Source: Clostridia bacterium (GTDB lineage: Bacteria; Bacillota; Clostridia; Christensenellales; UBA1242). From it: a stretch of 60,472 nt of DNA. The stretch is from positions 1 to 60,472 of the forward strand of contig JAFQFI010000008.1 in assembly GCA_017398655.1 (NCBI GenBank). The letters are read 5' to 3'. Both the position numbers and the translations under genes were made by a program. The stretch's first letter is position 1, and each line of letters begins with the position of its first letter. The notes under the pieces are model-generated. The model saw only the letters and a list, made by a program, of their open reading frames with translations, did not search any database and was not told the origin of the DNA. Of the stretch, positions 15,406-30,557 are shown one piece after another.

Positions 15406-16755
15406 TTATAGTTCTAAATCTTCTATTTTTTCAATCAAAACATCTCTATTCCACAGTTCGACTTTATTAACTTTAGCCAATTTTATTGCTGACGGAGTAA
15501 AATAATTATTTGTAACAACCATACACTTGTCAGCTTTATAGTATTTCATACCAGCAACAGCTTCCATTATTGCATGATTTCCAACTTTGTTATTATAACA
15601 TTTTGCTTGAATTGCGATTTTCAAATCATTTTTCTCAGCTATCACATCTATTCCTTGGTCATTACTTGCTTTGGTAATTTTCGTTTGATAACCCATATTT
15701 TTAAATAAATCAGATACGCAACTTTCAAACTCTTTACCAGACATTACATCTATATCAACAATAGAAACTGAATCTTTCTCTTTTTCTTCTTTTAACAAAT
15801 CGTTTAAATATTTTTCTGCATGTATTTGATTTTCGATTAAATCTAATTTTTCTTTATAAATTTCACTTGCTATATCCATATTTTCATTTTTATAAATTTC
15901 TTTAGAAAATAAAATAAAAGTAATTTCTTCAATTAACAAATTTTCTCTTCTTAATTTTTTTATTATATTTTTTTCATTTTCTTCATTTATTAAAAATTCA
16001 TATTTTTTACAAAAATTGTTTATATAATTATTTTTAATTTCATTATAAAATCTTTCATTTAAAAGTAAGAAAAAGGCATCTTCTGTATTTTTATCTCCTT
16101 CAATAACACCTTGTGTTACTAAGGCATCATAAAATTGACGCAATTCCCTACATTCAAATCCACCCTTATCAAATTGATTAGCACTAAAATGTTGTTTTTT
16201 TAAAATAAATCGAGACTTAATATCAAAAGATAAATTTATATCTTTTTCTGCTATAGTTACTATTTCCCAATATTCTAAAAATCGATTAAAAGTTTGTAAT
16301 GGAGGAATTTGAATATCTTCCTCTTCATTATTTTCATGTTTAGTTAATTCCTTAAATTTCTCTAACTCTTCTTTTAAAATCAATGGCTTGTAGTTATTTC
16401 CAAAATTATTAATCTTAACACTTGGCATTGCTATACTATCAACATTCTTGTATAAAAAAATATCTAAATTTTCTCTTTTAGAAAAAAATTTTGCTAAATA
16501 TTGATTTAATTTATCATTTTCACACAAATTAACATACTCTTCTAAAATATCCTTGAATGTGGATATATTTTTAATTAATTCTTCATTTTCAATCTTTAAT
16601 CCTTCTTTATTTAATTCTGGAGAATTAAATTTATCTATATCTTTTTTTTTCTTCTCATTTTTTAATCCCACTACAACATATATAATAGCGATTATAACCA
16701 AAGACACCAAAAAGATTACTGACCCAATTCCTGAAGCTCCCAATAAATTAACCAT
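15406..16755 (-). CDS. membrane-anchored protein with C-terminal Mrr-cat (PD-(D/E)xK) restriction-endonuclease domain
   Basis: 449 aa. N-terminal TM helix, a long K/E/N-rich middle region, and a C-terminal GKEFE...GIDVIAEK...IAIQAKCY block typical of the Mrr_cat fold. Confidence 0.7.
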   Translation of the reverse strand: MVNLLGASGIGSVIFLVSLVIIAIIYVVVGLKNEKKKKDIDKFNSPELNKEGLKIENEELIKNISTFKDILEEYVNLCENDKLNQYLAKFFSKRENLDIFLYKNVDSIAMPSVKINNFGNNYKPLILKEELEKFKELTKHENNEEEDIQIPPLQTFNRFLEYWEIVTIAEKDINLSFDIKSRFILKKQHFSANQFDKGGFECRELRQFYDALVTQGVIEGDKNTEDAFFLLLNERFYNEIKNNYINNFCKKYEFLINEENEKNIIKKLRRENLLIEEITFILFSKEIYKNENMDIASEIYKEKLDLIENQIHAEKYLNDLLKEEKEKDSVSIVDIDVMSGKEFESCVSDLFKNMGYQTKITKASNDQGIDVIAEKNDLKIAIQAKCYNNKVGNHAIMEAVAGMKYYKADKCMVVTNNYFTPSAIKLAKVNKVELWNRDVLIEKIEDLEL

Positions 16756-16890
16756 AAAAGTAAAACCTCTTTAATAAAAAGATAACATAGAATTAGATTT
16801 TTGTCATTTGATAGAATACTATTTTACTTTTGTAAATCAAAATATTGAAAAAATAGTTTCTATAAAACAATAAATAATTATACAAATAAT

Positions 16891-17964
16891 TTATTTTTTC
16901 TCTAAACCTTCTAATATTCTATGACACCTATCAAGTTGTTCTTTTACATATTTTGTTATTAAATTCGTAAACTTTTTTATTTTTGCAAAATAATTAGGAT
17001 ATGCTTTTTGCAAAGAAGCTATTGACTTTGCAGACACAAGAACAACATCTGTATTAATATCTTTATTTAATTCCAATTTTGCATAAGTTTTTATGGCTTT
17101 TTTTGTTGACTTTTCATCTTCATCAAAATATTTAATTTCCAAAGAAGGATTCATAGTTTTTAATTGAAGTAAATAGTACCCCGATTTATTATAATTTTTT
17201 TTACTATCAAATATTATTTTAACAGTAGCAAAAGTATATAATTTCTTAGTTAAACCATATTTTTTGTTTAAATTGAAAAACTCTCCAATTGTTTCTAAAT
17301 GTTTTTTTATGTCATCTATGGTCTTTATTTTTTTACACTCTTCTTCTTCAAATATCAATGAAGATAATCTAAAAAAATCAAGCCAAATTTTTTCACCTTG
17401 ATTAAATTTCAATCCGTTATTTGTGAACATACCTACAGATTCAACAGCTGTAGCCCATAAATGCTGCAGTCTTGTTCTTAGTTGAAGTTCTACAGAGATT
17501 TTGTCGTAGTTATTGTCTTTTATAAAATCATATATAAGGTGAATTCCTCTATATCCAGTGTCTTTATTCGGATTTTTTATATAATCTTTTTCTTTATTCA
17601 ATAAAAAATCTTCACTAATATTTAATATTGAGTCTCTAAAAGAATAAACTTCTTCTAAATTTGAAAAGATTACTCTACATCCTCCAAGATCTTGCATACT
17701 GCTTAATCTCATATTTGGATAACGCACCAGTTTATTTACTATGGTGTCTAACCTTTTTAATCTTTGTGCAAAAACAACTCCTTTACGAGTCCCTATAGCT
17801 CTTTTCAATTCTTTTGCCAATTTAATCATTGGATGAGCATGAACAGCTCTCCAGCGTTCCACAATTTTTAAATGTTCGTTGTTTTTTCTATCTAAAGAAT
17901 TCTTTGCTATTTCTTTTCCAATAATATCTATTTGATTTTTACTGTAAATAATATTTCTATCCAT
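16891..17964 (-). CDS. RelA/SpoT-domain nucleotide pyrophosphokinase, long single-gene form (toxSAS/CapRel-like)
   Basis: 357 aa. Synthetase motifs GGCRVIF, YRGIHLIY and ELQLRTRLQHLWA, no HD hydrolase domain, and a ~170-aa C-terminal extension of unknown fold. Confidence 0.7.
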   Translation of the reverse strand: MDRNIIYSKNQIDIIGKEIAKNSLDRKNNEHLKIVERWRAVHAHPMIKLAKELKRAIGTRKGVVFAQRLKRLDTIVNKLVRYPNMRLSSMQDLGGCRVIFSNLEEVYSFRDSILNISEDFLLNKEKDYIKNPNKDTGYRGIHLIYDFIKDNNYDKISVELQLRTRLQHLWATAVESVGMFTNNGLKFNQGEKIWLDFFRLSSLIFEEEECKKIKTIDDIKKHLETIGEFFNLNKKYGLTKKLYTFATVKIIFDSKKNYNKSGYYLLQLKTMNPSLEIKYFDEDEKSTKKAIKTYAKLELNKDINTDVVLVSAKSIASLQKAYPNYFAKIKKFTNLITKYVKEQLDRCHRILEGLEKK

Positions 17965-18028: not shown

Positions 18029-18077
18029 TGGTGGGCCACCGGGGACTCGAACCCCGGACCCACTGATTAAGAGTCAG
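18029..18077 (-). repeat. attL: displaced 3' portion of tRNA-Lys (49-bp direct repeat)
   Basis: Base-for-base identical to 32489-32537 (tggtgggccaccggggactcgaaccccggacccactgattaagagtcag). Confidence 0.9.
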
Positions 18078-18112
18078 AGAATAGTCCTTTATTTAAGCCA
18101 CTTATAGCGTTT

Positions 18113-18134
18113 AGTACCCAAATAAGTACCCAAA
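18113..18134 (+). repeat. tandem AGTACCCAAA arm-type sites (left arm)
   Basis: AGTACCCAAA occurs twice at a 12-bp period. The same pair occurs at 32384-32405. Confidence 0.6.
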
Positions 18135-18148
18135 AAAAGTCTTGCAGT

Positions 18149-18931
18149 TTATTTAAAAACCACAAGACCATTTTGTTGTACATGATATTGATTCTTCGAA
18201 TATATAGCTTTAATAAAGTCTTTTATATCAATACCTTTAAGGTGCCCTTCTTTATTTATTGTCACATTACAATTCTTTACATGAGCTCTCGACCAAGCCT
18301 TGCCTAAATTTATTGCATTTTCTTCAGAAATAATATCTTTTAGTAAATAAAAAACAGAATAACAATCATAAGACTTAACATTGTTCGGCATATTTAAAAT
18401 ATATTGCCTCGCGGATGAATCATGTGAAAGTAACGCAAAAATATCAGCGTCACCAATTCTATTTGCAATTGATATATTTAAAATTGTCATGATTTCCCCC
18501 ATGTTGTTTCCACTAGGTATATTTCTAACAATTTTATTCAACTGTATAATAAACATTTTTAACTTTGTTTCGTTCATACAAAGATTTTCTAATTGGCTAA
18601 AATAATTTTTATAAAAAGTATCACTTTTAGAAATTTCAATTGATATTTTACGAATCTCATCCAAAATAATATGTTTAATAGTTATATCATCAAAAAAATG
18701 CTTTAGGCCTTTTACAATTTCAAAATTGTCAACTATGCTTATTTTTTCTTCTTGATGATATTTATAAATTATTTTTAAAATATTAGGATTCTTTATTTCA
18801 TCAAGAACCTTTGAAACCATAATAAATTTATACGGAAGTTTTATAATTTCATCGAAAAATGTGGAAGAATTATTTTTTGCTTTTATTGTTTTATTTATAA
18901 AATCCGTATCTAAATATGCAACTTTACTCAA
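18149..18931 (-). CDS. PIN-like domain protein (putative nuclease effector)
   Basis: 260 aa with a TTG start overlapping the upstream stop by 8 nt. YLDTDFI, VLDEI and SHDSSA are spaced like PIN acidic residues. Tentative call. Confidence 0.4.
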   Translation of the reverse strand: MSKVAYLDTDFINKTIKAKNNSSTFFDEIIKLPYKFIMVSKVLDEIKNPNILKIIYKYHQEEKISIVDNFEIVKGLKHFFDDITIKHIILDEIRKISIEISKSDTFYKNYFSQLENLCMNETKLKMFIIQLNKIVRNIPSGNNMGEIMTILNISIANRIGDADIFALLSHDSSARQYILNMPNNVKSYDCYSVFYLLKDIISEENAINLGKAWSRAHVKNCNVTINKEGHLKGIDIKDFIKAIYSKNQYHVQQNGLVVFK

Positions 18932-19757
18932 CTGAATCTTTTTTAGTAATTTTTTTTAAAATTTCTTCCACTTTTAATTTTGTACTATTTGCTTTACTAT
19001 TACTGATAAACTGAAATTCCTCATTCTCACTTATGAGATAATCTAGATCATCCAAATCATAATAATTACTGCACTTTTGTTCCCATCTTTCAAAACGAAG
19101 TTTTATTATTACTTCATCTAATAATTTTATTGTCTCTTTGCCTATTCCTAAAAAAATTTTCAATTCTTTTTCACTGATTTTTTCTAATTCATATGCTCTT
19201 ATAACTGCAGTTTTATAAGGAACCATAAATGAATCCATTAATTTTTCAATATAAAAAACTTTTTCTTTTGATGTTTTTGGTTCTCTTTTACAAACAAGTT
19301 CAACCCTCTCTTTAGGCATTAGAAAACAAGAACTAAAAGCATTTGCCTTTTTATCGTTTATATTGCACTCAACTTCATTTGGATTATCCTTAAGTACATC
19401 TATTAAATTGTCATCCGTAGAATCTTCATGATTTTCTAGGAAATCAATAAAATGATAGAACTCATGAGCTAATGCTACATTTTGTTTGTTCATTGGAAAT
19501 TCTGAATTTATAACAATGAAAAATATTCCAGATATTTTATAAAACATACCCCATACTTGATCATCGTTAAAAGGAAGATATAATATTTTTAAACAAACAT
19601 TCTTTCTTTCTGCATATTCCTTTATAAATAATTTAAGATTATAAGCAATAGGTGTTAATTCTGAAATATTATAAAGAATCATGTTAGCTTTTTTTTCAAT
19701 ATCTCTAAATAAACTTTTATCAGAATAAAACAAACAATCTTTGATTTTAATAGACAT
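18924..19757 (-). CDS. ImmA/IrrE-family (M78, COG2856) zinc metallopeptidase
   Basis: 277 aa with the HExxH motif ALAHEFYHF. Its ATG directly abuts the stop of the upstream XRE gene, and the SD AAGGAGG lies inside that gene. Confidence 0.7.
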   Translation of the reverse strand: MSIKIKDCLFYSDKSLFRDIEKKANMILYNISELTPIAYNLKLFIKEYAERKNVCLKILYLPFNDDQVWGMFYKISGIFFIVINSEFPMNKQNVALAHEFYHFIDFLENHEDSTDDNLIDVLKDNPNEVECNINDKKANAFSSCFLMPKERVELVCKREPKTSKEKVFYIEKLMDSFMVPYKTAVIRAYELEKISEKELKIFLGIGKETIKLLDEVIIKLRFERWEQKCSNYYDLDDLDYLISENEEFQFISNSKANSTKLKVEEILKKITKKDSVE

Positions 19758-20108
19758 TTATGCCTCCTTATTATCATTTAAGTATTGTTGTTCAACAATA
19801 ATATCTGATAACTCAAAAATCAATTCAAAAGTTTTATTTGTCTCTTTTTTTGTAATCTCTCCCATAAGTTGAGCAGAAACTTTTTCTTTTAAAACTTTTC
19901 TTTGTCTTGTCAAATCTTCTATTTTACATGAAAAAAAATTAGCAATCTTTGCAAATTCGCTTGCTAATAAATTTCTCTTTCCTGCTAAAATTTTATTTAC
20001 TGTTTGTCTTGGCAAATCTAAAAACCTTCCTAGATCTGATTGTTTCTTCTTTTGTTTATTAAGTAAATCTAAAATATTTTGAGCAACCATTAAATCAAAA
20101 TTTTCCAT
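19758..20108 (-). CDS. XRE-family helix-turn-helix regulator
   Basis: 116 aa. QSDLGRFLDLPRQTVNKILAGKR is an HTH_3-type motif. Strong SD (AAAGGAGGG). Confidence 0.8.
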   Translation of the reverse strand: MENFDLMVAQNILDLLNKQKKKQSDLGRFLDLPRQTVNKILAGKRNLLASEFAKIANFFSCKIEDLTRQRKVLKEKVSAQLMGEITKKETNKTFELIFELSDIIVEQQYLNDNKEA

Positions 20109-20131
20109 AATTACTCACCCTCCTTTGGTAT

Positions 20132-20159
20132 TTTATATTAATTATTATGTCCTTGTCAA
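20132..20159 (-). promoter_or_regulatory. putative promoter of the XRE-ImmA-PIN operon
   Basis: TTGACA, 16-nt spacer, TATAAA on the minus strand just upstream of the SD. Confidence 0.4.
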
Positions 20160-20281
20160 TATTAAATATGCAAAATGTAACTAAATTAGTGACAAATGTA
20201 CATAAAAATTTCTTATTTAGAAGACATTTTTTAGTAAAAAAATTTTAATATAATCTAATAATTACTTCAATCTTTAGTGAC

Positions 20282-20320
20282 AAAAAAAATAAATCCAAAG
20301 ATTTTTTGGATTTATTTTTA
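20282..20320. terminator. bidirectional terminator downstream of the kinase gene
   Basis: Hairpin AATAAATCCAAA-N6-TTTGGATTTATT with A- and T-runs on either side. Confidence 0.65.
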
Positions 20321-20476
20321 AATATTTTCTTTGATTAAATCTCTATTTAATCTAAATATTAGATAACAAAATCAATTATAAAATTACATCAATTATAGAA
20401 AGAATTAAAAATCAGATAAAGTCTCTTATTAAGTCACTTATAAAGTTCAGTACAAAAATTTTAAAATTGTGTTTCA

Positions 20477-21610
20477 TTAAAAAGGCAAATCTTCATCTAT
20501 TTTAACTTTTACTTTAGACAATTTTGCTTTTATACTTTTTATTACAATTTCTTGAAAATGCCTATCTTTTCTTTCAAACCAATTTAAAAAATCTTTAACC
20601 AATGCTGTTTCTATTCTTATGCCATTTGAATATGCATAATTATTTTTCACAAAAATCGATATTAGACTGGAGTTTTCTATTAAAACATTCTCCAAACAAT
20701 TTTCTTCTAATAAATTCTCTAAACCGTTTATTATTTCATCAACATTATCGTTAATCTTTTGTTCTGAAGAATGGTGATCTAAAGCCAAAATCATGCTAGA
20801 TGAAAAATTTAAATAAATTTCTTTGTCTTTTTCTGTTATATCTAATCTTGTTAACTCTTTATGGTTTATTTTATTTAAAATATCTTCAAAAGAAGCAAAC
20901 CTTTTACTAGGATCAGTTTCCAACATCTTATTTAAAATTGTTTTATACTCAAAATTGTTTAAACTATTTTTTTTCAAAAGTCTACTAAACAATTCTGCAA
21001 GACAAAACATATCTGTTTTTGACGTGTATTTCCCTACATTTATTTCAGACGGTATTTTTTCCATTCCTCTTCTATCTATAACTTTATTTAAGCTATCTTT
21101 AGACATTGATGATTCAGAGAAATCTTTTCCCAAACCAAAATCTATTATTTTTACAACGCCATTTTTGTCAATCATAATATTATTTGGTCTAATATCTCTA
21201 TGAATTATGTTGTTTTTTTCTAAACAATTAAAGGCGTTAATTAATTGTATAAAAATTGAATTCGCATCAATTTCAATATCTTTTTTTGATAGATACTTGT
21301 CAATAGTTTCTCCGTCAATGTATTCCATTAATATAAACCCAGCATTGTATTCATCATATAAATAATAATTATAAATTCTCACTATGTTTGGATTATTAAG
21401 TTTGTACATTATTTTTATTTCTTTTTTAAACATATCATAAAAATATTTTATATTTACACCTTCTTGAGGAAGATATTTTTTACATACAAAAAGTTCTTCT
21501 AGAGAATTATCCCTTAGTAAAACTGTTTGCCCACAAGAACCTTTACCTAATTTTGCATTAACCATTGTATAACTTTTTGTCTTTATAAAATTAATTATTT
21601 CGTTTTCCAT
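20477..21610 (-). CDS. Hanks-type Ser/Thr protein kinase with unknown C-terminal domain
   Basis: 377 aa. Has LGKGSCGQ (G-loop), VCKKY, HRDIRPNN and IIDFGLGK motifs, followed by ~125 aa of unknown function ending in DEDLPF. Confidence 0.8.
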   Translation of the reverse strand: MENEIINFIKTKSYTMVNAKLGKGSCGQTVLLRDNSLEELFVCKKYLPQEGVNIKYFYDMFKKEIKIMYKLNNPNIVRIYNYYLYDEYNAGFILMEYIDGETIDKYLSKKDIEIDANSIFIQLINAFNCLEKNNIIHRDIRPNNIMIDKNGVVKIIDFGLGKDFSESSMSKDSLNKVIDRRGMEKIPSEINVGKYTSKTDMFCLAELFSRLLKKNSLNNFEYKTILNKMLETDPSKRFASFEDILNKINHKELTRLDITEKDKEIYLNFSSSMILALDHHSSEQKINDNVDEIINGLENLLEENCLENVLIENSSLISIFVKNNYAYSNGIRIETALVKDFLNWFERKDRHFQEIVIKSIKAKLSKVKVKIDEDLPF

Positions 21611-21640
21611 AACTTCTCCTTAATTTCACCATATCACAAT

Positions 21641-21680
21641 AAAAAAAGAGACTCAAGTATTTTTTTAAGTCTCTTTTTTT
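21641..21680. terminator. bidirectional terminator between the replication-like gene and the kinase gene
   Basis: Hairpin AAGAGACT...AGTCTCTT flanked by A- and T-runs. Confidence 0.6.
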
Positions 21681-22512
21681 ACAAATCTATTTCATCTAAA
21701 TTATCAAAAAGCGATTCTAACTCTTCAGTTGTATAGTTCCTGGAGATAAAAGCTTTGCGTTCTTCTTTTTGGTTTGGTTGTTTATAATCATCATAGTATC
21801 CAGTTATAATTTTATGGTAGTTGTCCATTAAGAAATCAAAATCAATTCTTGGATTGTTCTGAAGAAATAAACTTTTATCCAAAGCTGCAAGAAGAGAATC
21901 ACATTTAAAACCTACAGGAAGTAGTGTTAATCTATCCACTTTAAATCTTGGATATTTTTCGAATAAAGGAACAAGTCTCTCATCTATACTACAATTTATA
22001 TTACTACTATAATTATTATCTTTTTGAGTGTCTATTTCTATATTATATATACTACTAATATTATTATTTTTAGTATTTATATTATAATATGTTAACCAAC
22101 TTGGACATTTTTGACCAAGTTCACTTGCCAACTTGGACATTTTTGACCAAGTTAGAAGTAAAAAATATTTTTTCACTCCAACTGTTTCACTTTGCTTTTT
22201 AGATAGAACGTGGAGAGATTTTTTTGTAAGACAGATATTTATACCTGCAAAAAGATTTTGTTTCTTAAGATAACCGGCATTTACAAGCTTTGAAATTAAA
22301 CGTTTTAATTGTTTAACTTCAATGTTTAAAATTGGAAGTGCTTCAAGAACTTCTCTATAATTAAACGTTTTAAAAAGAGAAACTTCTTGGCCAGAAACAA
22401 ACTCTTCAGATATTATTGACTTGGAGAAATAAAAAAGCAGCAATAGTTCGTTTGCTGACAATTTATCTTTTAAAATTATTCTTTGTTGATAATCAAAAAC
22501 GTAATCCCACAT
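21679..22512 (-). CDS. winged-helix replication-initiator/replisome-organiser-like protein
   Basis: 277 aa. N-terminal wHTH-like segment, N/S/I-rich linker, acidic C-terminus, and internal DNA iterons. The functional call is an inference. Confidence 0.35.
   Translation of the reverse strand: MWDYVFDYQQRIILKDKLSANELLLLFYFSKSIISEEFVSGQEVSLFKTFNYREVLEALPILNIEVKQLKRLISKLVNAGYLKKQNLFAGINICLTKKSLHVLSKKQSETVGVKKYFLLLTWSKMSKLASELGQKCPSWLTYYNINTKNNNISSIYNIEIDTQKDNNYSSNINCSIDERLVPLFEKYPRFKVDRLTLLPVGFKCDSLLAALDKSLFLQNNPRIDFDFLMDNYHKIITGYYDDYKQPNQKEERKAFISRNYTTEELESLFDNLDEIDL
22096..22153. repeat. two identical 26-bp iterons, each with an internal dyad (candidate origin)
   Basis: ccaacttggacatttttgaccaagtt occurs at 22096-22121 and 22128-22153. 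Each copy contains the dyad AACTTGG-N10-CCAAGTT. The 32-bp period is not a multiple of 3. Confidence 0.7.
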
Positions 22513-22571
22513 AAAAAACCCTCTAATTTTTCGCGTAGTTAAATTAGGGTATTGATTTTAATACCCTTTTT

Positions 22572-22789
22572 TTATAAAAAAGTCGATTTTAAAGCATTTT
22601 CGAGTGCTACGCACACAAGAGCTGAACAGCGTTTTTCTAATCGGATTTTCGATAATATATTTGCTCGTCCATACTCTTGCATACATATCGCACTACAGCA
22701 ACAGGTAGCCCCATTTTGACCCACAGGGGCTAAAGCCGATCCTGTGGGTAAATAAATCAAAATGGGGCATTAACAAAGTTGCTGTAGTG
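22572..22789 (-). other. GC-rich structured non-coding block (candidate ncRNA, packaging signal or single-strand origin)
   Basis: Nested perfect stems of 12, 12 and 8 bp span 22691-22789. More small hairpins lie at 22572-22690. The composition is clearly more GC-rich than the surroundings. Confidence 0.55.
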
Positions 22790-22946
22790 TATCCCTCGTT
22801 ACCAGTTTTTCTAATTCTGTTATCTTTCCCAAGGTTGCTTTCAATATTACCTGTTTGTTGATTTTGTCAGATTTGTAAATTCCTACTTTTACCAATCTGT
22901 CAACTTCTTTCCTGCAGACCTTTCTTTCTTGAGATATTTCAGCCAT
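22770..22946 (-). CDS. small hypothetical protein (58 aa)
   Basis: ATG with AGGAGA SD. Translates to MAEISQERKVCRKEVDRLVKVG... It is below the ORF-track length cutoff, and its 3' end runs into the 5' arm of the hairpin. Confidence 0.45.
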   Translation of the reverse strand: MAEISQERKVCRKEVDRLVKVGIYKSDKINKQVILKATLGKITELEKLVTRDTLQQLC

Positions 22947-22958
22947 ATTTTTCTCCTT

Positions 22959-23261
22959 TTATTTTAAAATTAAAGTGAAAATAATAAAAATAGCAGTTAT
23001 TGCTAAATATAAAAAAATAATGAGTTTTTGTAACATTACTAATAATATATTTTTAGTTCTTTTTGCTTTAGTTAACATAATAAGAGAAGTAATAAAGCCA
23101 ACTACTAAAGTAAATAAAGCGTATGGCAGTAAAAATATTGACCCTAAAACGTCACCAGTTTTAAATGGTAAAATATTAGTAATTGGCAAAATAATTCTGA
23201 CTGAAAACGCCAAGCAAACAACTTCTATTAAAAAACCAATTAAAGATAATATTTTTCTCAT
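22959..23261 (-). CDS. small multi-pass membrane protein
   Basis: 100 aa from the ATG at 23261, with an AAGGAGA SD. About 3-4 hydrophobic helices. Confidence 0.6.
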   Translation of the reverse strand: MRKILSLIGFLIEVVCLAFSVRIILPITNILPFKTGDVLGSIFLLPYALFTLVVGFITSLIMLTKAKRTKNILLVMLQKLIIFLYLAITAIFIIFTLILK

Positions 23262-23293
23262 CAATTCTCCTTAAATAATTTTATTTACAAATT

Positions 23294-24754
23294 TTAAGCC
23301 AATTTTTTGACCTTGTAAGCCCTGTTTATAATTTCTTGGTTAAATAGTTGTTTTATTTCATCTTCGCTTAAAACGGGTGTTTTAAAGGTCTCTACGCTGG
23401 CAGATTGATATTGACAAGCATATAAATTTCTAAAAGTTCGGTCATCATAAAAACAATTTAAGTTTGGTGGTAAAACAAAAGATTTTACACGAGAGCCAAT
23501 TTGACCTTTATTTCCAACTTCAAGGTTTCCATAATCTTCATACTTGAATTTTCTAAAACCAACTGAATTAACATAAGTTCTTAAATCGGATATAATTTTT
23601 ACTTTAGTGTCTGTAGGTTCATAATTTTGAATAAACTCTTCAAGCCAAGAAACAATCCAATCTAATAGATAAGGTTTTAAAACGTGTTTTTGTTCTATCA
23701 TTTTTTTATTTTCTGCTGTAACACGTCTTGCAGAAATTAAAGTAGCATTTCCGTCTTGTTCTGTAGAAACTAATCTAAAATCCTTATACTGTCTTGTAAA
23801 TCTAAACATGTGGTCTATCAATTGGATTTTATTATTAGAAAGTTCTGGTGGAAGCATTGAACCAATTTCGTCCAAGAAAGCAACGCCTTTATATAAAAGT
23901 TTACTTTTTTGTAGTAGGTGATCTGCTGTAAATTTACAAGCAGGTTTTCCGTCTTTAAAAATTGGAATGTTACTCCAGAAACAAGGAATGCAATCGTTTT
24001 CGCTATAAAACTCATAAGCTTCAACAACTTCTATTACATGTTTTATTTTGACTTCATCTCCGGTGTACTTCCTTTGATATTCGACAATTGGAAAACCTTT
24101 TTTATCAAGGCCGATAACTTTATGTTCCAAATGAGTTCCAGAATAAATCCTTATTATTTTATTTTCCAACTTCCAATATTCAAATTGAAGATTTTTCCAT
24201 AATTTATCTGCAATTTCAATTGAGTCGTATATACCTGAAGACGACTTTCCTGCTCCAGGTTCTCCCATTCTTAAAACAACGTATTTTGACATACTTAAGT
24301 TTTCAGAATGTGATATTACAGATAGTTCATAAAATTCGTTAGAAACAAAATATATAAGGGTGAAAAAAGTCGCAACTGCTAAAGGAATAAAAAGTATTAG
24401 TTTTTTAGCTGTAAATCCAAAAGATGAAACATAAAGAATATCTAAAAGCAAAACTATAATAAATTCAATCAAATAATGAAAACGTGCTAATTTTTGAAGA
24501 AAAGATTTTTTTACTTTAAAAACCAAAACTTTATCTATTAAGTTTTCATCGTCTTCCGGTTCTGGTTCATAAAATTTTGTTTGAGCTTCTTCTTTCTTTT
24601 TAAAATACTTTGCATAATCTCTCCAGTGCTGGAGGGCAAATAAATCTTCTTTTAAATGTTTATCTGCCAACTTCCAACGCTGTTTTGTTTTTTGATTACC
24701 TTTGTATTTTGAATATGTTAATAATTTAGGTTCTGAATAAGTTAATAACTCCAC
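23294..24754 (-). CDS. membrane-anchored P-loop NTPase, Zot-like
   Basis: Probable GTG start at 24754 after GAGG. Two TM helices are followed by Walker A GEPGAGKSS, Walker B AFLDEIG and FRFTRQYKDFRLVSTEQD, resembling the Zot/pI family pattern. Confidence 0.55.
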   Translation of the reverse strand: MELLTYSEPKLLTYSKYKGNQKTKQRWKLADKHLKEDLFALQHWRDYAKYFKKKEEAQTKFYEPEPEDDENLIDKVLVFKVKKSFLQKLARFHYLIEFIIVLLLDILYVSSFGFTAKKLILFIPLAVATFFTLIYFVSNEFYELSVISHSENLSMSKYVVLRMGEPGAGKSSSGIYDSIEIADKLWKNLQFEYWKLENKIIRIYSGTHLEHKVIGLDKKGFPIVEYQRKYTGDEVKIKHVIEVVEAYEFYSENDCIPCFWSNIPIFKDGKPACKFTADHLLQKSKLLYKGVAFLDEIGSMLPPELSNNKIQLIDHMFRFTRQYKDFRLVSTEQDGNATLISARRVTAENKKMIEQKHVLKPYLLDWIVSWLEEFIQNYEPTDTKVKIISDLRTYVNSVGFRKFKYEDYGNLEVGNKGQIGSRVKSFVLPPNLNCFYDDRTFRNLYACQYQSASVETFKTPVLSEDEIKQLFNQEIINRAYKVKKLA

Positions 24755-24755
24755 A

Positions 24756-27062
24756 TTAAACCTCAAATTCAATAGAATCAATTGTTAATGATGTCACTTT
24801 TCCATCAGTAAAACCTACAGGATTTTCTTCACCAGAAGCGTAAACTTTATTTATTTTTTCATACGATTTTACATAGATTTCTAAAGAATTAGTATCTAAA
24901 TCAATTTTTGCAGAAAAATATAGTGGGAAATAATAATAAGTAGAATCATTATACTGTTCGTTAAAAACTCCCATATAAGCAAAACTTTTAGCTAATAAAG
25001 GAACTGTAACTAATTCATCTAATTTATAAAGACCACTTTCTTCATCAAAAGTTAAATTTAAATCATAATCAACTGATTTATTTACACTATAACTATTTAT
25101 TTTTGTATAAGAAGAACCAAAAGTTTTCACATAATTTACCGTTTCAAGATAATAAGAACTAATATTTATAGCAATATTTTTAAAATCAGTTATAGGTTGC
25201 TCCAAAGAAGATAAATCAACTGTGAAAGTTGTATATGTGGAATAATTACCAGTTCCACTAAAAGCAGTTCCATATGTTAAAGTTTTTGATGCAATTTTAT
25301 AAATTGGATAAAAATCAGTATCTGAAGTTATTGCTATTGTTGAAATATCTATTACTGTTTCTTGATCTGTTGACCAACCAACAAAAACATATCCTGTTCT
25401 ATCACTTAAGATAGGTGTAACAGAGTATTTGTCTGTTTCAATAAGTTGAGTTTCTAAAATTACTAATTCTTCATTTTCATCATAGCCATAGAAATTAACA
25501 ACGTTTAATCTTTCAAATTCAGCAATATATGTTGTATGGCTTGTAATTGCTTCAGATAACACGTCTGTTAATATTCCATTCTTTAACCAGCCATTAAATT
25601 TATATCCGTCCTTTATTGGCTCTGCAGGAAGTTCTGGATAATGATTTAATTCAATTATTTGAGAATTATGTATATCTTCACTATCCTCATCAAGTTTGAA
25701 TATAACGTCAAAACTATAAGTTATATTTGCAACTAAAACAGTATCTGCAACAATTGGTGTTGTTGTTATATCAAATACAACATCATTTGAGTACCAACCA
25801 TTAAATTTCCTGTAAACACTACTTTCAACTTCAATTTCTGAAGCGTACTCATTATTTCTTACAATTTGAGTGTCTTGAGTAGTATCTTCATAAATAAAAG
25901 TTACTGTGTGAAGTTTTGTAAATACAGCTACAAAAATTGTATCTTGTGTTATTTGAATTTCTGTAGGATTTACTTTATCAACACCATTCAAAGACCAATA
26001 GTCAAACTCATATCCGTCTTTTACTGGCTCTGCAGGAAGTTCCGGATAATAATTAAGTTCTATAATTTGAGAACTATGTAAATCTTCATCTACTTTAAAC
26101 TTAACATCATATCTGGTTGTTATATCAGCATAAAATGTTGTATTTGCAGAAAGTGGATAAGAACTTAATTCAACTTCTTGTTTTTCTCCGTCAACTTCAA
26201 CGTACCAATAATTGAAAGTTACATATTCAGTTGATTCTGGATTAACAAGTGCAGGTGTAGTTCCTTTATTAATTACTTGAATGTTATAAACGCTATTATT
26301 AAAATAGAACGTTGCAACAACTTGATTTTCGTTTTCTAAATTTTTGATATATTGTTCATAATATTCAATTGATTTTTTTAAGCTTTCAACTTCGTTTTTA
26401 AGTGAAGTTAAAGCTGCAGAATTATTTTCTGAAGCAGTTGTCATTTCAGAAATTTGTTTATTTAAAGTTTCAATTTGTAAATTCATATTTACAATTGTTT
26501 GAGTGTTTAAATCATTGGTTGATTGTAAAGAAGCATTTACTGTTTGAAGATTTGAAATTTGTTTCTGAAGTAGCTCTATTTCTTCAGATTTATCTTCATC
26601 ACTTGCTTTAAGTTTTGTAACTTCATTTTTTAAATTTGAAATAGTTACTTTGTTTTCTGCAATTATTTTTTCATTTTCAGCATTAATTGTTTCTAAAGAA
26701 AGTACTCTATTTTGATAAGTATTTCTTTCACTTGTTAACGTTGAAATTTTAGTTTGATATTCCCAATTATTGTCTGTTAATACTTTAATTTGAGATTGAG
26801 AATCTGCTATTTCTTTTTCATAAGTTGCTACAAGTTTTTTATAGTAACTTTCATTATTCTTGGCGTCAGAATAACCGTCATTGTAAGCATCAGAAGTTAT
26901 TTCATCTACTTGTGTTTGAGTATAAATAGAACTTCCTTTTATAAGAGCAAATAACCCCTCTTTATTATTAAAAGTCCACCAAACACCAAAAACTAACGCT
27001 CCCACAATCAGTACACAAACCAAGGAAAAAGCTATGCTTCTTGCGTTCTTATTTTTTTCCAT
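24756..27062 (-). CDS. N-terminally anchored surface protein: coiled coil plus repeated P.P.K.GY.F.GW (Listeria-Bacteroides-repeat-like) domains
   Basis: ATG at 27062 after GAGGAGG. TM helix, ~200 aa of heptad-like sequence, then repeats such as YPELPAEPVKDGYEFDYW and YPELPAEPIKDGYKFNGW. Confidence 0.6.
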   Translation of the reverse strand: MEKNKNARSIAFSLVCVLIVGALVFGVWWTFNNKEGLFALIKGSSIYTQTQVDEITSDAYNDGYSDAKNNESYYKKLVATYEKEIADSQSQIKVLTDNNWEYQTKISTLTSERNTYQNRVLSLETINAENEKIIAENKVTISNLKNEVTKLKASDEDKSEEIELLQKQISNLQTVNASLQSTNDLNTQTIVNMNLQIETLNKQISEMTTASENNSAALTSLKNEVESLKKSIEYYEQYIKNLENENQVVATFYFNNSVYNIQVINKGTTPALVNPESTEYVTFNYWYVEVDGEKQEVELSSYPLSANTTFYADITTRYDVKFKVDEDLHSSQIIELNYYPELPAEPVKDGYEFDYWSLNGVDKVNPTEIQITQDTIFVAVFTKLHTVTFIYEDTTQDTQIVRNNEYASEIEVESSVYRKFNGWYSNDVVFDITTTPIVADTVLVANITYSFDVIFKLDEDSEDIHNSQIIELNHYPELPAEPIKDGYKFNGWLKNGILTDVLSEAITSHTTYIAEFERLNVVNFYGYDENEELVILETQLIETDKYSVTPILSDRTGYVFVGWSTDQETVIDISTIAITSDTDFYPIYKIASKTLTYGTAFSGTGNYSTYTTFTVDLSSLEQPITDFKNIAINISSYYLETVNYVKTFGSSYTKINSYSVNKSVDYDLNLTFDEESGLYKLDELVTVPLLAKSFAYMGVFNEQYNDSTYYYFPLYFSAKIDLDTNSLEIYVKSYEKINKVYASGEENPVGFTDGKVTSLTIDSIEFEV

Positions 27063-29037
27063 AAACGTTCCTCCTCTTGTTACCTTTTTTGTAAAAACCA
27101 AATATCCAAAGAAGAAGTTGAATTGGTAAAGAAACAATCCAAACTACGCCTTTAAATAAAAGCTTTAAAATTGGTTTTAAAAATGGAATTGCTAATAAGC
27201 AAATAAGAATTACTATTGCAATAAGTATCCATGTGAAAGTATTTAAACTTTTATCTTCAAGAGTTACATCTACATCAGAGATAATATCAAAAGGACTTGA
27301 AACAACAGGAATTGTATAAAACATAGCGTCATTTGTGAGAGTTAATTGAATAATATCAAAATCTAAAAAAACATTCTCTTGTGCAGAACTCATTGCATAA
27401 TCAGTTGCCGGAAAGTAAAAATCTCCTAAACGTTTTTCATAAGAAACTTGCAAATTTGAATAAGAAAGATAATCTGTTTCTGCAAATCTAAATAAGAAAA
27501 CTGTTTCTTCATTTTCAGTTGCATTATTAAAATATTCTCTAAAATCATCTACATCATTTTTTGCAATAAGTAAATTTTCAGAAACTTTTGAATCACTTCC
27601 GATAACTTCATCTGAAGTAACGCTTTTGATTGGAGCAATTGTTTTATCTTCAATAGTATTAACAGTAAAGAATGTTTCCCACCATGAAGCACTTTCATTT
27701 AATTTTGTAATCTCGATATTATCTTCCACTGTAATATCAATTTTGTTATATCCCATTTTTCTATCTGAAGTTGCTGTAGATGTATTGTAGTATTTAGCAT
27801 TGAACTCTTCTTCTGATAAAAATAAATCTGCAGATATTTCTCTACCATTACAGTCAATAATTCCATTTTTAAAAATGCTATAGTTATAAATATAATTACT
27901 TAAATCTTCACTCTTTAACGTGTAATCGCCAACTATATCTTCAGCTAAAAAAAGATAATTTATTTCATTTAAAGTGTTAAGAGCATAATCAGAATCTGCA
28001 TTGTAAATAAATGAATCCTCTAACCATTCTTTATATGGCGTATAAAGAGGTGATCCAACGGTAGTCCAAAAACCTCCCGGTCTTAAAACAGCACAATCTG
28101 GAACGTCTCCGGAGTTGTGAGCAATATTTACTCCAATATAATCTTTTAAACTATTATAAACTTTGCTTGATGATGTTATAAAAATATCTTTTGTTGCATA
28201 TTCCCAAAATTCTGCCTTAACAGAATAAATACTTCCATATTTTTCAATAATTGAATTTGGCACACTAAAGTAAACACTGTTTATTTGAGAACCTTTAAAA
28301 CGTTCTTCCATTCCGTCAGAGTCAAATCTGTAATAAGAGTGCTTAACGTCTAACGTTAGAGTTTCAATTGCATTAGCTTCACATTTTAAAGTAGATTCTT
28401 CACTATCTCCACCAAAACCTTTAGCATATCCAGTAAAAGAATATGAAGTTGAAACGTTATACTCTGTAGCATTTTCTCTATCAGCAACGTTTAATTCAAT
28501 ACCAGAGATATGATAAGTTCTTTTTAAAGAATTAAGTTTTGTTAAAAAGATTGAAGTATCAGATATTTTGAATTTATAAAAAAGTTCAGCATAATCTCCT
28601 TGAGAACGGTCGCAATATTCCAGGTTAAATTTTTCATAATTTATTGGATTATTTTCTTCATCAAACTCTACAGCAATTTGAACTTTATTTGTTTTTATAG
28701 TATCAATTTCAATACCTTGAGGATTGTATATGTAAAGATATAAATTGTAATTATCTTGCATATCCAGTTTGTATGAATAGCAATATTCAACAAAGTTAAT
28801 TACCACCATTTTATCTTCAGATTGGTCAAACGGATATTTTAAAATATCAAAGTTTTCACAAGACAATAAATCTTCCATTACTCTTGTTTGGTCTAAATTT
28901 TTAACTTCATCTGAAGAAGTTGAAGCATAAACGTTTACAGAACTTATTGTTGGTATTAAAAAAGAAATGGCAAAAATAATTGCCATTAACAATAAAAAAA
29001 TTTTATTCTTCTTTTCTTTCTTTTTCATCATAAGCAT
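27049..29037 (-). CDS. large secreted protein with signal peptide and C-terminal TM anchor (spike/adsorption-like)
   Basis: 662 aa. N-terminal signal-like segment ending ...VYAS, and a C-terminal hydrophobic region with a basic tail. Confidence 0.55.
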   Translation of the reverse strand: MLMMKKKEKKNKIFLLLMAIIFAISFLIPTISSVNVYASTSSDEVKNLDQTRVMEDLLSCENFDILKYPFDQSEDKMVVINFVEYCYSYKLDMQDNYNLYLYIYNPQGIEIDTIKTNKVQIAVEFDEENNPINYEKFNLEYCDRSQGDYAELFYKFKISDTSIFLTKLNSLKRTYHISGIELNVADRENATEYNVSTSYSFTGYAKGFGGDSEESTLKCEANAIETLTLDVKHSYYRFDSDGMEERFKGSQINSVYFSVPNSIIEKYGSIYSVKAEFWEYATKDIFITSSSKVYNSLKDYIGVNIAHNSGDVPDCAVLRPGGFWTTVGSPLYTPYKEWLEDSFIYNADSDYALNTLNEINYLFLAEDIVGDYTLKSEDLSNYIYNYSIFKNGIIDCNGREISADLFLSEEEFNAKYYNTSTATSDRKMGYNKIDITVEDNIEITKLNESASWWETFFTVNTIEDKTIAPIKSVTSDEVIGSDSKVSENLLIAKNDVDDFREYFNNATENEETVFLFRFAETDYLSYSNLQVSYEKRLGDFYFPATDYAMSSAQENVFLDFDIIQLTLTNDAMFYTIPVVSSPFDIISDVDVTLEDKSLNTFTWILIAIVILICLLAIPFLKPILKLLFKGVVWIVSLPIQLLLWIFGFYKKGNKRRNVYGKK

Positions 29038-29131
29038 TTGCTCCTAATAAAATGAATCTTGCTAATTCATTTGAATTTGGCAATCTACCATATTTTTTAT
29101 AAAATTCATTTCTAAAATCTTGCTTTGACAT
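29003..29131 (-). CDS. possible 42-aa protein
   Basis: ATG 8 nt after GGAG (ggagaaaacaaa atg). Translates to MSKQDFRNEFYKKYGRLPNSNELARF... Overlaps the start of the 662-aa gene. Confidence 0.3.
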   Translation of the reverse strand: MSKQDFRNEFYKKYGRLPNSNELARFILLGANAYDEKERKEE

Positions 29132-29145
29132 TTTGTTTTCTCCTT

Positions 29146-29466
29146 TTAAAAATTAAAAATATTTCCTACTTTGGTAATAGTAAATTTTTGAAAAATACCT
29201 TTTATTTCATGTAAGGTATAGAAGATTTTTGCTTGGTCTTCTGTTTGAAAACCATAAGCTAATTTATCCTGGTTAAAAACAACTCTAAATTGTTTTGAAA
29301 TAATATCATTTTCGATTATTACTAAATCATTTGTAAAAAGCTCTTGTCCGTTGTAATCATACAGGTTTATAAACTCTGACAACGTTTCAGAAGTGTTTTC
29401 AAACAACTTGATTAAAATCCACTTTTTCTCTTGTTTAGAATAATCTTTTATTTTAATTTCCCTCAT
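29146..29466 (-). CDS. hypothetical protein (106 aa)
   Basis: Internal ATG at 29466 preceded by GGAG. Overlaps the upstream gene by 14 nt. Confidence 0.5.
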   Translation of the reverse strand: MREIKIKDYSKQEKKWILIKLFENTSETLSEFINLYDYNGQELFTNDLVIIENDIISKQFRVVFNQDKLAYGFQTEDQAKIFYTLHEIKGIFQKFTITKVGNIFNF

Positions 29467-29776
29467 AAACTTTCTCCAATTCTTCAGAGTTAGATGAAGT
29501 TGTTTTTTTATTTTCATCTATGTTTTGAGTAAGAATTGTTAAATAAACAACCATTCCGTTTTTCTCAAAATCTTTTTTAAGATGTAAAGCTTTTTCTAAC
29601 GTTAACCCTTTATACTCAATTTTTATTTCATCATCTAAATTATTAAAAACGTTAACGGAAATTTTATCTTTCTTGTTTATTTTTCTAATATCTAAAAATG
29701 TTGGAAAAGTTAATTCAAAATAAATTGTTAAAAATAAAACAAAGAAAGCTAATAAAAATGTTAAAAATACTTGCAT
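29453..29776 (-). CDS. hypothetical protein with N-terminal TM helix
   Basis: 107 aa with a hydrophobic N-terminus (MQVFLTFLLAFFVLFL). Confidence 0.5.
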   Translation of the reverse strand: MQVFLTFLLAFFVLFLTIYFELTFPTFLDIRKINKKDKISVNVFNNLDDEIKIEYKGLTLEKALHLKKDFEKNGMVVYLTILTQNIDENKKTTSSNSEELEKVYEGN

Positions 29777-29790
29777 TATTAACCTACCCC

Positions 29791-30078
29791 TTATTCAAAC
29801 ATGTAAATAATTTTGATTAGTAAAGTTACATAAACCAGAATTAAAGCACAGTTTAATAAAGTCATGATTGTTGATTTTGCCTTGACCGATTCTATTAAAC
29901 TTTTTAAAGCTGAAATAAAACCAATAACTTTTAAAACGATAAGTAAAATAATATTTAAAACTTTTAAGAAAACATCAGAATTGTTTATTTCTCCACCAAC
30001 CAAGAAAGCAAAAATAAGACAGATAAATGAAACAAAAATCAATATTTCTTTAGTTCCTGACTTTTGATAATTAGCCAT
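29791..30078 (-). CDS. small three-TM membrane protein
   Basis: 95 aa, strong SD (AAGGAGG), three hydrophobic helices. Confidence 0.55.
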   Translation of the reverse strand: MANYQKSGTKEILIFVSFICLIFAFLVGGEINNSDVFLKVLNIILLIVLKVIGFISALKSLIESVKAKSTIMTLLNCALILVYVTLLIKIIYMFE

Positions 30079-30109
30079 AAATTAACCTCCTTTTTCATAA
30101 GTTTCAAAT

Positions 30110-30361: not shown

Positions 30362-30386
30362 AACTTCCTCCAAATTTTTTTTATTT

Positions 30387-30545
30387 ATCCAGAGAAAACG
30401 GTAAAGAGAGCAAAGTTCTCTCTGGATATATTTACGAGTTTTTCGTAAATATTACTTTAATATTTACAATATTTTCGTAAATAGTCAAGTGTTTTTACGA
30501 AAATGTTGAAATTATTTTAATTTTTTTTACAATATTCTCGAATAA
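30387..30545. promoter_or_regulatory. divergent switch region: dyad hairpin plus four phased operator-like repeats
   Basis: TTTAC(G/A)A half-sites start at 30431, 30463, 30494 and 30526. O1 is a perfect 8-bp-arm palindrome (ATTTACGA-N5-TCGTAAAT). A 9+3-bp dyad lies at 30387-30427. Confidence 0.6.
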
Positions 30546-30557
30546 GGGGGCAATACA

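Follow-up and report, generated by a model that had tools for sequence, protein, structure and literature searches.

What is the tail of a single-stranded DNA-binding protein doing at the end of a protein kinase? The question is posed by a gene in the 60,472-nt stretch of Clostridia bacterium DNA analyzed here (the window), whose predicted product is a Ser/Thr kinase closing with the residues D-E-D-L-P-F, and which a sequence-only reading had singled out for its likeness to the C-terminal tip of SSB.

The kinase gene and the element that carries it

The gene, its flanking signals and its surroundings are laid out as follows.

20477-21610, minus strand: kinase gene, 377 amino acids plus stop (Hanks kinase, orphan C-terminal domain and SSB-tip-like tail)
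21616-21620, minus strand: Shine-Dalgarno AGGAG, 5 nt before the kinase ATG
21639-21682, minus strand: upstream hairpin with A- and T-tracts, terminator-like, of the preceding ORF and directly preceding the kinase gene
20285-20319, minus strand: downstream hairpin with T-tract, terminator-like, 3' of the kinase gene
20130-20159, minus strand: promoter-like site TTGACA, 18 nt, TAAAAT (11/12 matches), for the next operon (XRE, ImmA, 260 aa)
18149-20108, minus strand: cargo operon of XRE (19758-20108), ImmA/M78 peptidase (18924-19757) and 260-aa protein (18149-18931), adjoining the kinase gene
18029-18077, unstranded: attL, which bounds the element on the left and repeats the 3' part of tRNA-Lys perfectly over 49 nt
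31416-32375, plus strand: tyrosine integrase of the element
32489-32564, minus strand: tRNA-Lys(CTT), of which 32489-32537 is the attR copy of the 49-nt repeat

The open reading frame starts with ATG and ends ...KVKIDEDLPF-TAA. The upstream hairpin begins where the preceding ORF (21679-22512) has its stop codon and folds with -19.9 kcal/mol (z = -6.2, equaled by 0 of 200 shuffles), and the downstream one with -13.3 kcal/mol (z = -3.1, equaled by 1 of 200). A-tracts and T-tracts accompany both, and neither is among the calls of a simple terminator scan. The hairpins on either side and the gene's own Shine-Dalgarno, both claimed from the sequence at the outset, are thus borne out. A weak promoter candidate for the kinase (-35 TTGAGT, 17 nt, TG-n-TATGGT) overlaps the upstream hairpin and falls below the scan threshold. 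Because the next operon has a promoter-like site to itself, the kinase gene is likely to form a separate transcription unit. Its sequence was seen in DNA metagenome runs only, and in none of the RNA runs.

The gene lies within a 14.4-kb element that is integrated at tRNA-Lys, with 49-nt att repeats and an integrase, and it constitutes separately punctuated cargo of that element. The adjoining operon of XRE, ImmA/M78 and 260-aa genes resembles the defense candidate PDC-M69 and is not kept beside kinase homologues. No capsid, portal, terminase or tail gene was found among the element ORFs scanned with Pfam, PHROGs and NCBIfam, and tblastn of the element's 495-aa P-loop protein against 50,697 phage records gave no match. 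An empty att site was not found in related contigs, which break at the repeat. The comparison with a prophage moron therefore holds insofar as this is a cargo gene of an att-bounded integrated element, but the label is looser than stated in that no phage structural genes were recognized.

A conserved SSB-like tail on a kinase with an orphan domain

The protein falls into three parts.

20960-21562, minus strand: catalytic domain of the protein kinase, which Pfam places at residues 17-217, with the C-lobe running on to about residue 245
20516-20878, minus strand: C-terminal alpha/beta domain, residues ~245-365, restricted to this kinase family
20480-20497, minus strand: tail (residues 372-377), D-E-D-L-P-F, which corresponds to DDD(I/L)PF, the C-terminal hexapeptide of SSB, and is followed by the stop codon at 20477-20479

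Pfam Pkinase (PF00069) matches residues 17-217 with E=1.4e-30 and 107.1 bits against a cut-off of 31.7. Invariant across a 38-sequence family alignment are the glycine loop (G22/G24/G27), K44, E64, H137-R138-D139, N144, D157-(F158)-G159, P187/E189 (APE-like), D200 and R237 in subdomain XI, so that the full set of Hanks motifs listed by the sequence-only reading is both present and conserved, and the kinase looks catalytically competent. The AF2 model adds a pLDDT of 85.6 to the evidence for the kinase domain, with the activation loop (residues 165-171) below 50.

The C-terminal domain of about 120 residues is modeled confidently (AF2 pLDDT 90.4) and, as had been suspected, can be assigned no function by relationship: searches found no relative among PDB sequences (best E = 0.47), none by fold in PDB and BFVD (best E >1, TM-scores <0.35) and no match when the domain alone was compared with the PADLOC models. 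Short matches of ~150 and ~281 residues were considered as stand-alone versions of the domain and rejected, since gene starts called at M229 and M95, both invariant, would give such lengths on contigs that are truncated. The orphan domain was never seen without the tail of the kinase family.

The tail itself is decisively conserved among homologues, and the lack of conservation by which the sequence-only reading would have been refuted does not apply. An xPF end occurs in all 120 of the closest homologues (43-61% identity). Of the 150 representatives with the best scores, taken from clusters at 50% identity, 128 have it and 7 more have it with one extra residue (~135/150), the rest being mostly fragments. 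Among 80 GTDB loci, 70 end in PF, 5 have one residue beyond PF and 5 are truncated. The ends in these sets are of the type acidic-acidic-(L/I)-P-F, lying at the C-terminus or one residue short of it. In a logo of 231 non-redundant tails, F and P each stand at 100% and L/I at 90%, followed by D/E at 87%, 77% and 68%. Over hundreds of homologues, drawn from at least 10 phyla, neither P nor F of the tail varies any more than the catalytic residues do, and about 95% of complete family members end exactly at F. The remaining ~5%, a Lachnospiraceae clade, carry LPFN or LPFD, one residue beyond the Phe, which would disturb recognition of the terminal carboxylate. When the window and 84 loci were screened for ends of the acidic-hydrophobic-PF type, 0 of ~1,970 non-kinase ORFs (length 80 aa or more) had one. 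By its sequence, then, the conserved kinase tail is the SSB-Ct hexapeptide signature, and the resemblance first noticed in a single protein proves real across its family.

The likeness consists of an invariant P-F, a preceding L or I and three acidic residues at the extreme C-terminus, and it extends to lineage variants. Host matching was judged by comparing kinase tails with published SSB tips of the lineages concerned: FDDDIPF in E. coli, DDDIPF in Gram-negative SSBs, DDDLPF in Gram-positive ones and (D)LDDEIPF in the alpha-proteobacterial C7/C8. Burkholderiales homologues of the kinase end in DDDIPF, like Gram-negative SSBs; the Hyphomonas kinase ends in DLDDEIPF and that of Hyphomicrobium in DDEIPF, to be compared with the alpha-proteobacterial SSB tip; and most Bacillota kinases have LPF, as Gram-positive SSBs do. 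The exceptions are Paludibacter, with IPF, and one alpha-proteobacterial MAG, with LPF. On this evidence the kinase tail appears to follow the SSB tips of its host type, though the match is confounded with kinase phylogeny: the I/L pattern largely tracks the kinase tree, and the host match consequently rests on few independent events.

There are also differences from SSB. The tip sits on a kinase and an orphan domain rather than on an OB fold, about 5% of members have the extra residue, and in the AF2 model the tail lies only ~6-10 residues past the last helix and a short beta-bridge, so that its reach is short. Having neither an OB fold nor a long disordered linker, the kinase protein is not an SSB. 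The last 7 residues are modeled with a pLDDT of ~62 (~60 for the tail), a low value such as expected for a free peptide.

Known systems and the distribution of the family

By any test run, the family is not Stk2, PD-T4-6, MAD6 or PknB, and full-text searches of the literature found no paper describing it. Stk2 of Staphylococcus epidermidis is likewise a single-gene Hanks kinase that is carried on a mobile element (SCCmec) and acts in phage defense. It is described as an abortive-infection Ser/Thr kinase activated by the phage protein PacK, and phage recombinases are reported as targets of this staphylococcal Abi kinase. The relationship is nevertheless one of generic kinase-domain similarity only, the PADLOC Stk2 model (PDLC02375) scoring 62 bits, below ~23 other kinase models, and the C-domain matching nothing. 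The earlier proposal of an Stk2-like role accordingly survives as an analogy and not as an assignment. Longer family members (~480-503 aa) were entertained as Stk2 and ruled out by the scores of the same model, which gives 54 bits for the ~480-aa member P0172 and is not among the matches listed for the other longer members.

PD-T4-6, MAD6 and PglW resemble the window kinase as defense-associated Hanks kinases, and their PADLOC models match its kinase domain with E of 1e-30 to 1e-37. PD-T4-6 is reportedly a single-gene Ser/Thr kinase defense of E. coli (Vassallo 2022). The PD-T4-6 and MAD6 matches differ from the full protein in ending at about residue 170-246, and the PD-T4-6 models also label the core-genome housekeeping PASTA kinase of S. 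thermophilus. We rejected membership in the known kinase defense families of PADLOC (mad6, PD-T4-6, MkoA, Stk2) on the grounds that the matches are generic to the kinase domain and that the C-domain matches none of them. Among curated NCBIfam kinases (PknB/Stk1, MAD6, PglW, PrkT and others) the highest-scoring model reaches 105.7 bits, its cut-off being 450, and the others are lower still. The Stk of prophage 933W, an Stx phage, shares the position of a kinase as accessory cargo beside the repressor and immunity genes of a temperate element, but its 24% identity is confined to the kinase domain and leaves the C-domain and tail uncovered.

The tip is also found elsewhere. A search of viral contigs for a host-like SSB tip, which used fixed codons, returned a canonical phage SSB, a gp32-like SSB and a D5-like primase-helicase. 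From these cases it emerges that the docking module DDDLPF-COOH is portable between unrelated folds, including non-OB phage proteins. They differ from the kinase in being viral replication proteins in viral contigs, where the kinase family is nearly absent.

The family itself is spread patchily over at least 10 phyla, Proteobacteria included; a profile search of the representatives of 50%-identity clusters gives it 392 matches with E <= 0.001, of which some are fragments. Full-length members number 0 in the 50,697 phage records of INPHARED and 0 in 72,556 plasmids, both collections yielding kinase-domain matches only, and 2 in the 2.9 million viral contigs of IMG/VR. Most homologues are instead chromosomal single-gene insertions in R-M operons and defense islands. 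Some lie within type I R-M operons, with Shedu, MmeI-type (type IIL) R-M, Schlafen/AlbA and recombinases nearby; neighbors at homologue loci further include AbiEii, GmrSD, ThsB-TIR, HipA and a caspase-like protease. Housekeeping genes flank some kinase loci, and member P0060 carries an N-terminal AbiJ_NTD5 fusion. Clustering of the ORFs within 5 kb at 83 loci revealed no conserved partner gene, a family being shared by at most 12 loci (hsdM), and the neighbors of the window kinase are unique among them. We infer from these genomic contexts, which favor it, a role in defense. Host takeover, the other function that had been envisaged, is disfavored by the near absence of the family from collections of phages.

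Possible roles of the tail

The reading we prefer, to which we give a probability of roughly 0.55, is that the protein is a single-gene defense Ser/Thr kinase, carried as element cargo, whose SSB-tip mimic docks on replication and recombination proteins that bind SSB tips. It would combine an intact RD-type Hanks kinase, a family-specific C-domain and an exposed tip, [D/E][D/E][D/E](L/I)PF-COOH, that copies the SSB peptide of the host lineage. To our knowledge, phage single-strand-annealing recombinases and replication proteins must bind SSB tips. The tip of the kinase would dock into the hydrophobic/basic pockets that normally receive that of SSB, and candidate bearers of such pockets are these same phage proteins and/or host SSB-interacting proteins on ssDNA. 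Docking may thereby place the kinase where phage DNA is replicated or recombined, and there it could be switched on, for example by trans-autophosphorylation, and phosphorylate the docked protein and its neighbors. The outcome would be a block of phage DNA metabolism or abortive infection, with docking serving either as the trigger or as substrate targeting. The portability of RecT is dependent on the host SSB-Ct, and the Sak protein of phage 80alpha requires the last 7 residues of SSB. A more specific version of this scheme, which we put forward tentatively, holds that the tail is an integrated decoy, a host-matched bait whose capture of a phage protein activates the kinase and leads to abortive infection. 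A phage could then escape solely by giving up its use of host SSB, which would account for a tip that is as invariant as an active site and follows the host lineage.

The same tail might instead act within the kinase, binding its own C-domain or kinase domain as an autoinhibitory latch in cis or joining oligomers in trans, with the likeness to SSB-Ct arising by convergence. This is the more conceivable for a tip that follows a conserved orphan domain after a very short linker, the domain never being found without it, and for a tail whose pLDDT of about 60 does not drop below 50; SSB's own tip, moreover, is able to fold back onto its OB domain. AF2 places the tail with confidence on no surface of the protein, however, and a purely internal ligand would have no reason to follow the SSB tip of the host lineage. 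In a variant of the idea, SSB tips freed or flooded during infection would compete off the latch and activate the kinase, but the tail must then be the equivalent of an SSB tip, and the variant becomes a sub-case of mimicry. Altogether, we regard an internal role as doubtful. A role as a C-terminal degron strikes us as less probable again. Here ClpXP would recognize LPF-COOH and keep a potentially toxic kinase at low levels, infection or an overload or inhibition of the protease would stabilize it, and the resemblance to SSB would reflect a shared degron. A study in Streptococcus mutans UA159 (PMC5143411) reports that the LPF of SsbA suffices for ClpXP-dependent degradation of GFP and that L, P and F each matter, and these are the best-kept positions of the kinase tail. 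The study also counts just 3 S. mutans proteins ending in LPF, 2 of which are SSBs, and mentions tests of purified ClpXP on GFP-LPF and of S. gordonii. By its account, though, recognition of LPF is strain-dependent and absent in E. coli, and one of its headings says that LPF is not recognized in other bacteria, whereas the kinase tail is kept in phyla that include the Proteobacteria. A degron would in addition require LPF only, and the kinase also retains acidic residues at three positions and changes, with the host, to DDEIPF or DDDIPF.

About equally improbable, in our estimation, is a service to the mobile element, the host takeover envisaged at the outset, in which the kinase would dock on host partners of SSB and remodel host replication or repair to the benefit of element replication, maintenance or superinfection exclusion. 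The window gene does sit in an integrated element, prophage kinases such as 933W Stk occupy immunity regions, and papers on the T7 kinase report that phage kinases are able to act against host defenses. Arguing the other way are the mostly chromosomal locations of the homologues and the near absence from phage, plasmid and viral collections described above, together with neighborhoods that hold no conserved element genes.

Stk2 and PD-T4-6 already stand as examples of defense Ser/Thr kinases, for which the sensing of infection and the choice of substrates are the questions at issue. The tail suggests how a kinase of the immune repertoire might connect to DNA metabolism, and the biochemistry attached to its six residues is understood well enough to make the trigger of the kinase a matter for direct test. 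If docking by SSB-tip mimicry is confirmed, the SSB interaction hub would count among the conserved features of the host that are guarded or imitated by immunity, the family would connect with the many defenses triggered by phage SSBs and recombinases, and an orphan domain invariably paired with the tail would be newly identified. Should the decoy interpretation prove true, no earlier immune sensor would be known to copy the SSB interaction hub, and the kinase would be a bacterial counterpart of the integrated decoys of plant NLRs.

The kinase gene and its SSB-like tip

Residues 17-217 of the protein form a protein kinase domain (Pfam, E = 1.4e-30), and 38 aligned full-length homologues show no variation at G22, G24 and G27 of the glycine loop, at K44 (the lysine that anchors ATP), at E64 (the glutamate of alphaC), or at H137-R138-D139, N144, D157 and G159 of DFG, the APE-like P187/E189, D200 and R237. 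This bears out the sequence-only reading, which had listed every Hanks motif as present, and with no motif missing the protein is an RD-type Hanks kinase. The gene and its flanks are laid out as follows:

20477..21610 (-), kinase ORF, 377 residues, C-terminus ...KVKIDEDLPF then TAA
21639-21682, upstream hairpin, fold -19.9 kcal/mol, z = -6.2
20285-20319, downstream hairpin, fold -13.3 kcal/mol, z = -3.1
20159-20130, promoter-like site of the next downstream operon, near consensus

Both hairpins fold as that reading described, and neither is among the results of a generic terminator scan. The upstream one begins at the preceding ORF's stop codon, a Shine-Dalgarno AGGAG lies 5 nt ahead of the kinase ATG, and the kinase's own promoter is a weak candidate only. 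Taken with the downstream operon's own promoter-like site, the hairpins and Shine-Dalgarno indicate that the kinase is punctuated as a separate unit.

The SSB-like tail is confirmed. Published SSBs end in DDDIPF in Gram-negatives, E. coli among them, and in DDDLPF in B. subtilis, S. aureus and S. mutans; at the level of sequence the kinase tail is this same C-terminal hexapeptide. A tail lost among homologues would have counted against the earlier proposal; instead, each of the 120 top database homologues, at 43-61% identity and 374-395 aa in length (475 aa in one case), terminates in xPF after acidic residues. Searching 1.84 billion cluster representatives with a profile built on the last 133 residues returned 392 proteins; among the best 150, each from a separate 50%-identity cluster, 128 terminate in xPF, 7 further in PF plus one residue, and the remainder are mostly fragments. 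Loci from GTDB species genomes behave similarly (PF end in 70/80, PF plus one residue in 5/80, truncated in 5/80). Over 231 non-redundant tails P and F each stand at 100%, L (71%) dominates position -3 ahead of I (19%), V (4%) and M (3%), and positions -4, -5 and -6 are D/E in 87%, 77% and 68%. The ~1,970 other ORFs, drawn from the window and 84 loci, never end in this signature, and in S. mutans just three proteins end in LPF, two being SSBs (PMC5143411). A Lachnospiraceae clade of the family carries one residue after the Phe (L016, L020, L026, L042, LPFN; L027, LPFD), which should alter terminal-carboxylate recognition and makes the clade a natural tail variant.

The tail also appears to track the SSB tip of the host lineage, a striking match, though host phyla are largely mirrored by the kinase tree and the matches are thus not independent evidence at each tip. 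Kinases of Burkholderiales end in NDDDDIPF, FMDDDIPF or EMDDDIPF, those of Hyphomonas and Hyphomicrobium in DLDDEIPF and DPDDEIPF, and those of Campylobacterota in DDEIPF or DEEIPF, while LPF is usual in Bacillota and Bacteroidota; tips of published SSBs read FDDDIPF for E. coli, DDDLPF for Gram-positives and, for alpha-proteobacteria (whose SSB C7 motif was found in 5,795/18,841 assemblies), LDDEIPF or DLDDEIPF. The pattern is broken by a kinase from an alpha-proteobacterial MAG, which ends in LPF, and by a Paludibacter one that has IPF and falls in a Bacillota clade.

Modelled by AF2 on the family alignment, the full kinase gave a confident structure (pLDDT 85.6; activation loop 165-171 below 50, last seven residues ~62). 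Modelled alone, the C-domain is a helix-rich alpha/beta structure (pLDDT 90.4) with the tail tip after a short beta-bridge. Its description as a domain without assigned function holds: it has no PADLOC or NCBIfam match and no Pfam family covering the region, and we found no relatives in the PDB by sequence or in the PDB or BFVD by fold. In complete proteins among the best 150 of the 392 profile matches it is always paired with the kinase. Short matches of ~150 and ~281 aa were rejected as stand-alone C-domain proteins, their lengths fitting truncated calls from M229 and M95, both invariant in the family. One homologue (P0060, 475 aa, ENA metagenome) has an N-terminal AbiJ_NTD5 domain (E = 4e-29) ahead of its kinase, C-domain and DIPF tail. 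In other members, 480-503 aa long, the N-terminus is extended by 100-140 aa that match no family.

The integrated element and its surroundings

18029-18077 and 32489-32537, 49-nt perfect direct repeat (attL, attR) copying the 3' part of tRNA-Lys(CTT)
32489-32564, tRNA-Lys(CTT)
31416-32375, tyrosine integrase, adjoining tRNA-Lys
18149-20108, XRE / ImmA-M78 peptidase / 260-aa operon adjoining the kinase, matching defence candidate PDC-M69 A and B (PADLOC)
15406-16755, Mrr-family nuclease, outside attL
16891-17964, RelA/SpoT-like protein, outside attL (PADLOC PDC-S33, E = 2.5e-101; phrog_4773)

The att repeat, tRNA-Lys and integrase make the kinase cargo of a 14.4-kb integrated element, at the end distant from the integrase. 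Phage structural genes were not recognisable among the element ORFs scanned, nor was any capsid, portal or terminase in 18078-32488, so its status as a prophage is not established. The label of prophage moron is looser than first proposed; the element may be a virus of unusual kind or an integrative element that is not viral. The third protein of the PDC-M69-like operon (18149-18931) matched nothing in any library, and the trio is absent beside kinase homologues elsewhere.

The element further encodes two tandem XRE repressor paralogues and large proteins that match no family, among them one of 662 aa, one of 793 aa (coiled coil, Listeria-Bacteroides repeats), one of 495 aa (P-loop GEPGAGKSS, membrane segments) and a membrane protein of 101 aa. 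The adjacent XRE genes (115 and 103 aa, 30558-31220) have a 103-nt stretch in common (90% identity, copies spaced 351 nt) and are recent duplicates. A second repeat of 25 nt (96% identical; 18110-18134 and 32381-32405) lies ~30-85 nt inward from each att copy. It may mark where a recombinase binds, as an arm-type site, or be left over from tandem integration. ORF 21679-22512 (277 aa, weak winged-helix match) contains two perfect 26-nt direct repeats, CCAACTTGGACATTTTTGACCAAGTT, at 22096-22153, each internally palindromic and 32 nt apart, which look like iterons or an origin inside a replication-initiator gene. Beyond attL, the Mrr and PDC-S33 genes form a second small defence cluster (15406-17964) that may be what is left of a previous insertion at this tRNA. 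Related-strain contigs L200, L202 and L207, from the same or related samples, break ~100-230 nt from the att repeats on both sides, which fits repeat-induced breaks or strain heterogeneity at the tRNA-Lys site; no empty att site was recovered in contigs of these samples.

Distribution and relation to known kinases

PADLOC models mad6, PD-T4-6, MkoA and Stk2 match the protein, and we rejected all four assignments because what matches is the generic kinase domain; by itself the C-domain matched no PADLOC kinase defence model, and the core PASTA kinase of S. thermophilus is likewise labelled by PD-T4-6 models. Every NCBIfam kinase model fell far below its cut-off. By analogy the family would work like single-gene defence kinases, yet it belongs to none of the known kinase families tested.

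The sequence is present in gut metagenomes, and the family is scattered through Bacillota, Bacteroidota, Proteobacteria, Campylobacterota, Spirochaetota, Saccharibacteria and other CPR, Acidobacteriota, Planctomycetota, Fusobacteriota, Melainabacteria and others. It has no conserved neighbour gene, the commonest being hsdM at 12/83 loci. Insertion among type I restriction-modification genes is repeated (hsdM or hsdS upstream; hsdR directly downstream in 6 loci), and other neighbours include Shedu SduA, MmeI-type R-M, Schlafen/AlbA_2 proteins, DUF4011 helicase-nuclease genes, a conjugative coupling protein, AbiEii, GmrSD, ThsB-TIR, HipA and a caspase-like protease; housekeeping genes flank some loci. 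Full-length members number 0 in 50,697 phage records, 0 in 72,556 plasmids and 2 in 2.9 million viral contigs. These traits are those of a stand-alone defence gene that spreads horizontally, and by them the family is neither a phage takeover factor nor a housekeeping kinase; the host-takeover role once suggested is disfavoured by the near absence from phage and viral collections and by the defence-type neighbours.

Possible roles of the tail

To our knowledge, the SSB-tip pockets of replication, recombination and repair proteins are the only broadly conserved receptors for an acidic-(I/L)PF-COOH end. Phages depend on the same tip: 80alpha Sak requires SSB's last seven residues, and RecT function in a new host hinges on compatibility with the host SSB-Ct. 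Together with the Abi-kinase statement and the viral-contig scan given below, these points favour a reading in which the kinase tip docks onto SSB-tip-binding replication or recombination proteins, to which we give slightly better than even odds (about 0.55). Docking could act as a trigger, the tip being bait for phage recombinases or replication proteins, or it could target substrates. According to one paper, phage recombinases are the targets of the staphylococcal Abi kinase.

An exact-codon scan of viral contigs for DDDLPF-stop found it on canonical, E. coli-type SSBs (47 ORFs), gp32-like SSBs (22), several small unclassified families (one with DUF669), a 161-aa protein of no known kind and a 466-aa D5-like primase-helicase (DUF5906 + D5_N + Pox_D5). 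Its presence on unrelated phage replication proteins argues that the SSB tip is a portable module.

L127:3783 onward (IMG/VR contig 3300046021_000479), viral-contig tail locus
L087-L199 generally, viral-contig tail loci

The main points against simple SSB-like docking are the short tether and the LPFN/LPFD clade. A rival is that the tail is a ClpXP degron, an activity shown for LPF in some S. mutans strains and not seen in E. coli (PMC5143411). The tip might otherwise contact the orphan C-domain, as an internal latch or in oligomerisation, or the kinase might serve the mobile element itself.

The sequence-only reading is thus partly supported, its sequence-level predictions strongly so, while its functional part is inferred. 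The full-text literature searched, with most subscription journals outside coverage, nowhere describes a kinase carrying an SSB-like tail; we do not claim proof of novelty. The family falls among defence-type kinases and has a distinctive, mechanistically suggestive feature. It is well worth experimental attention.
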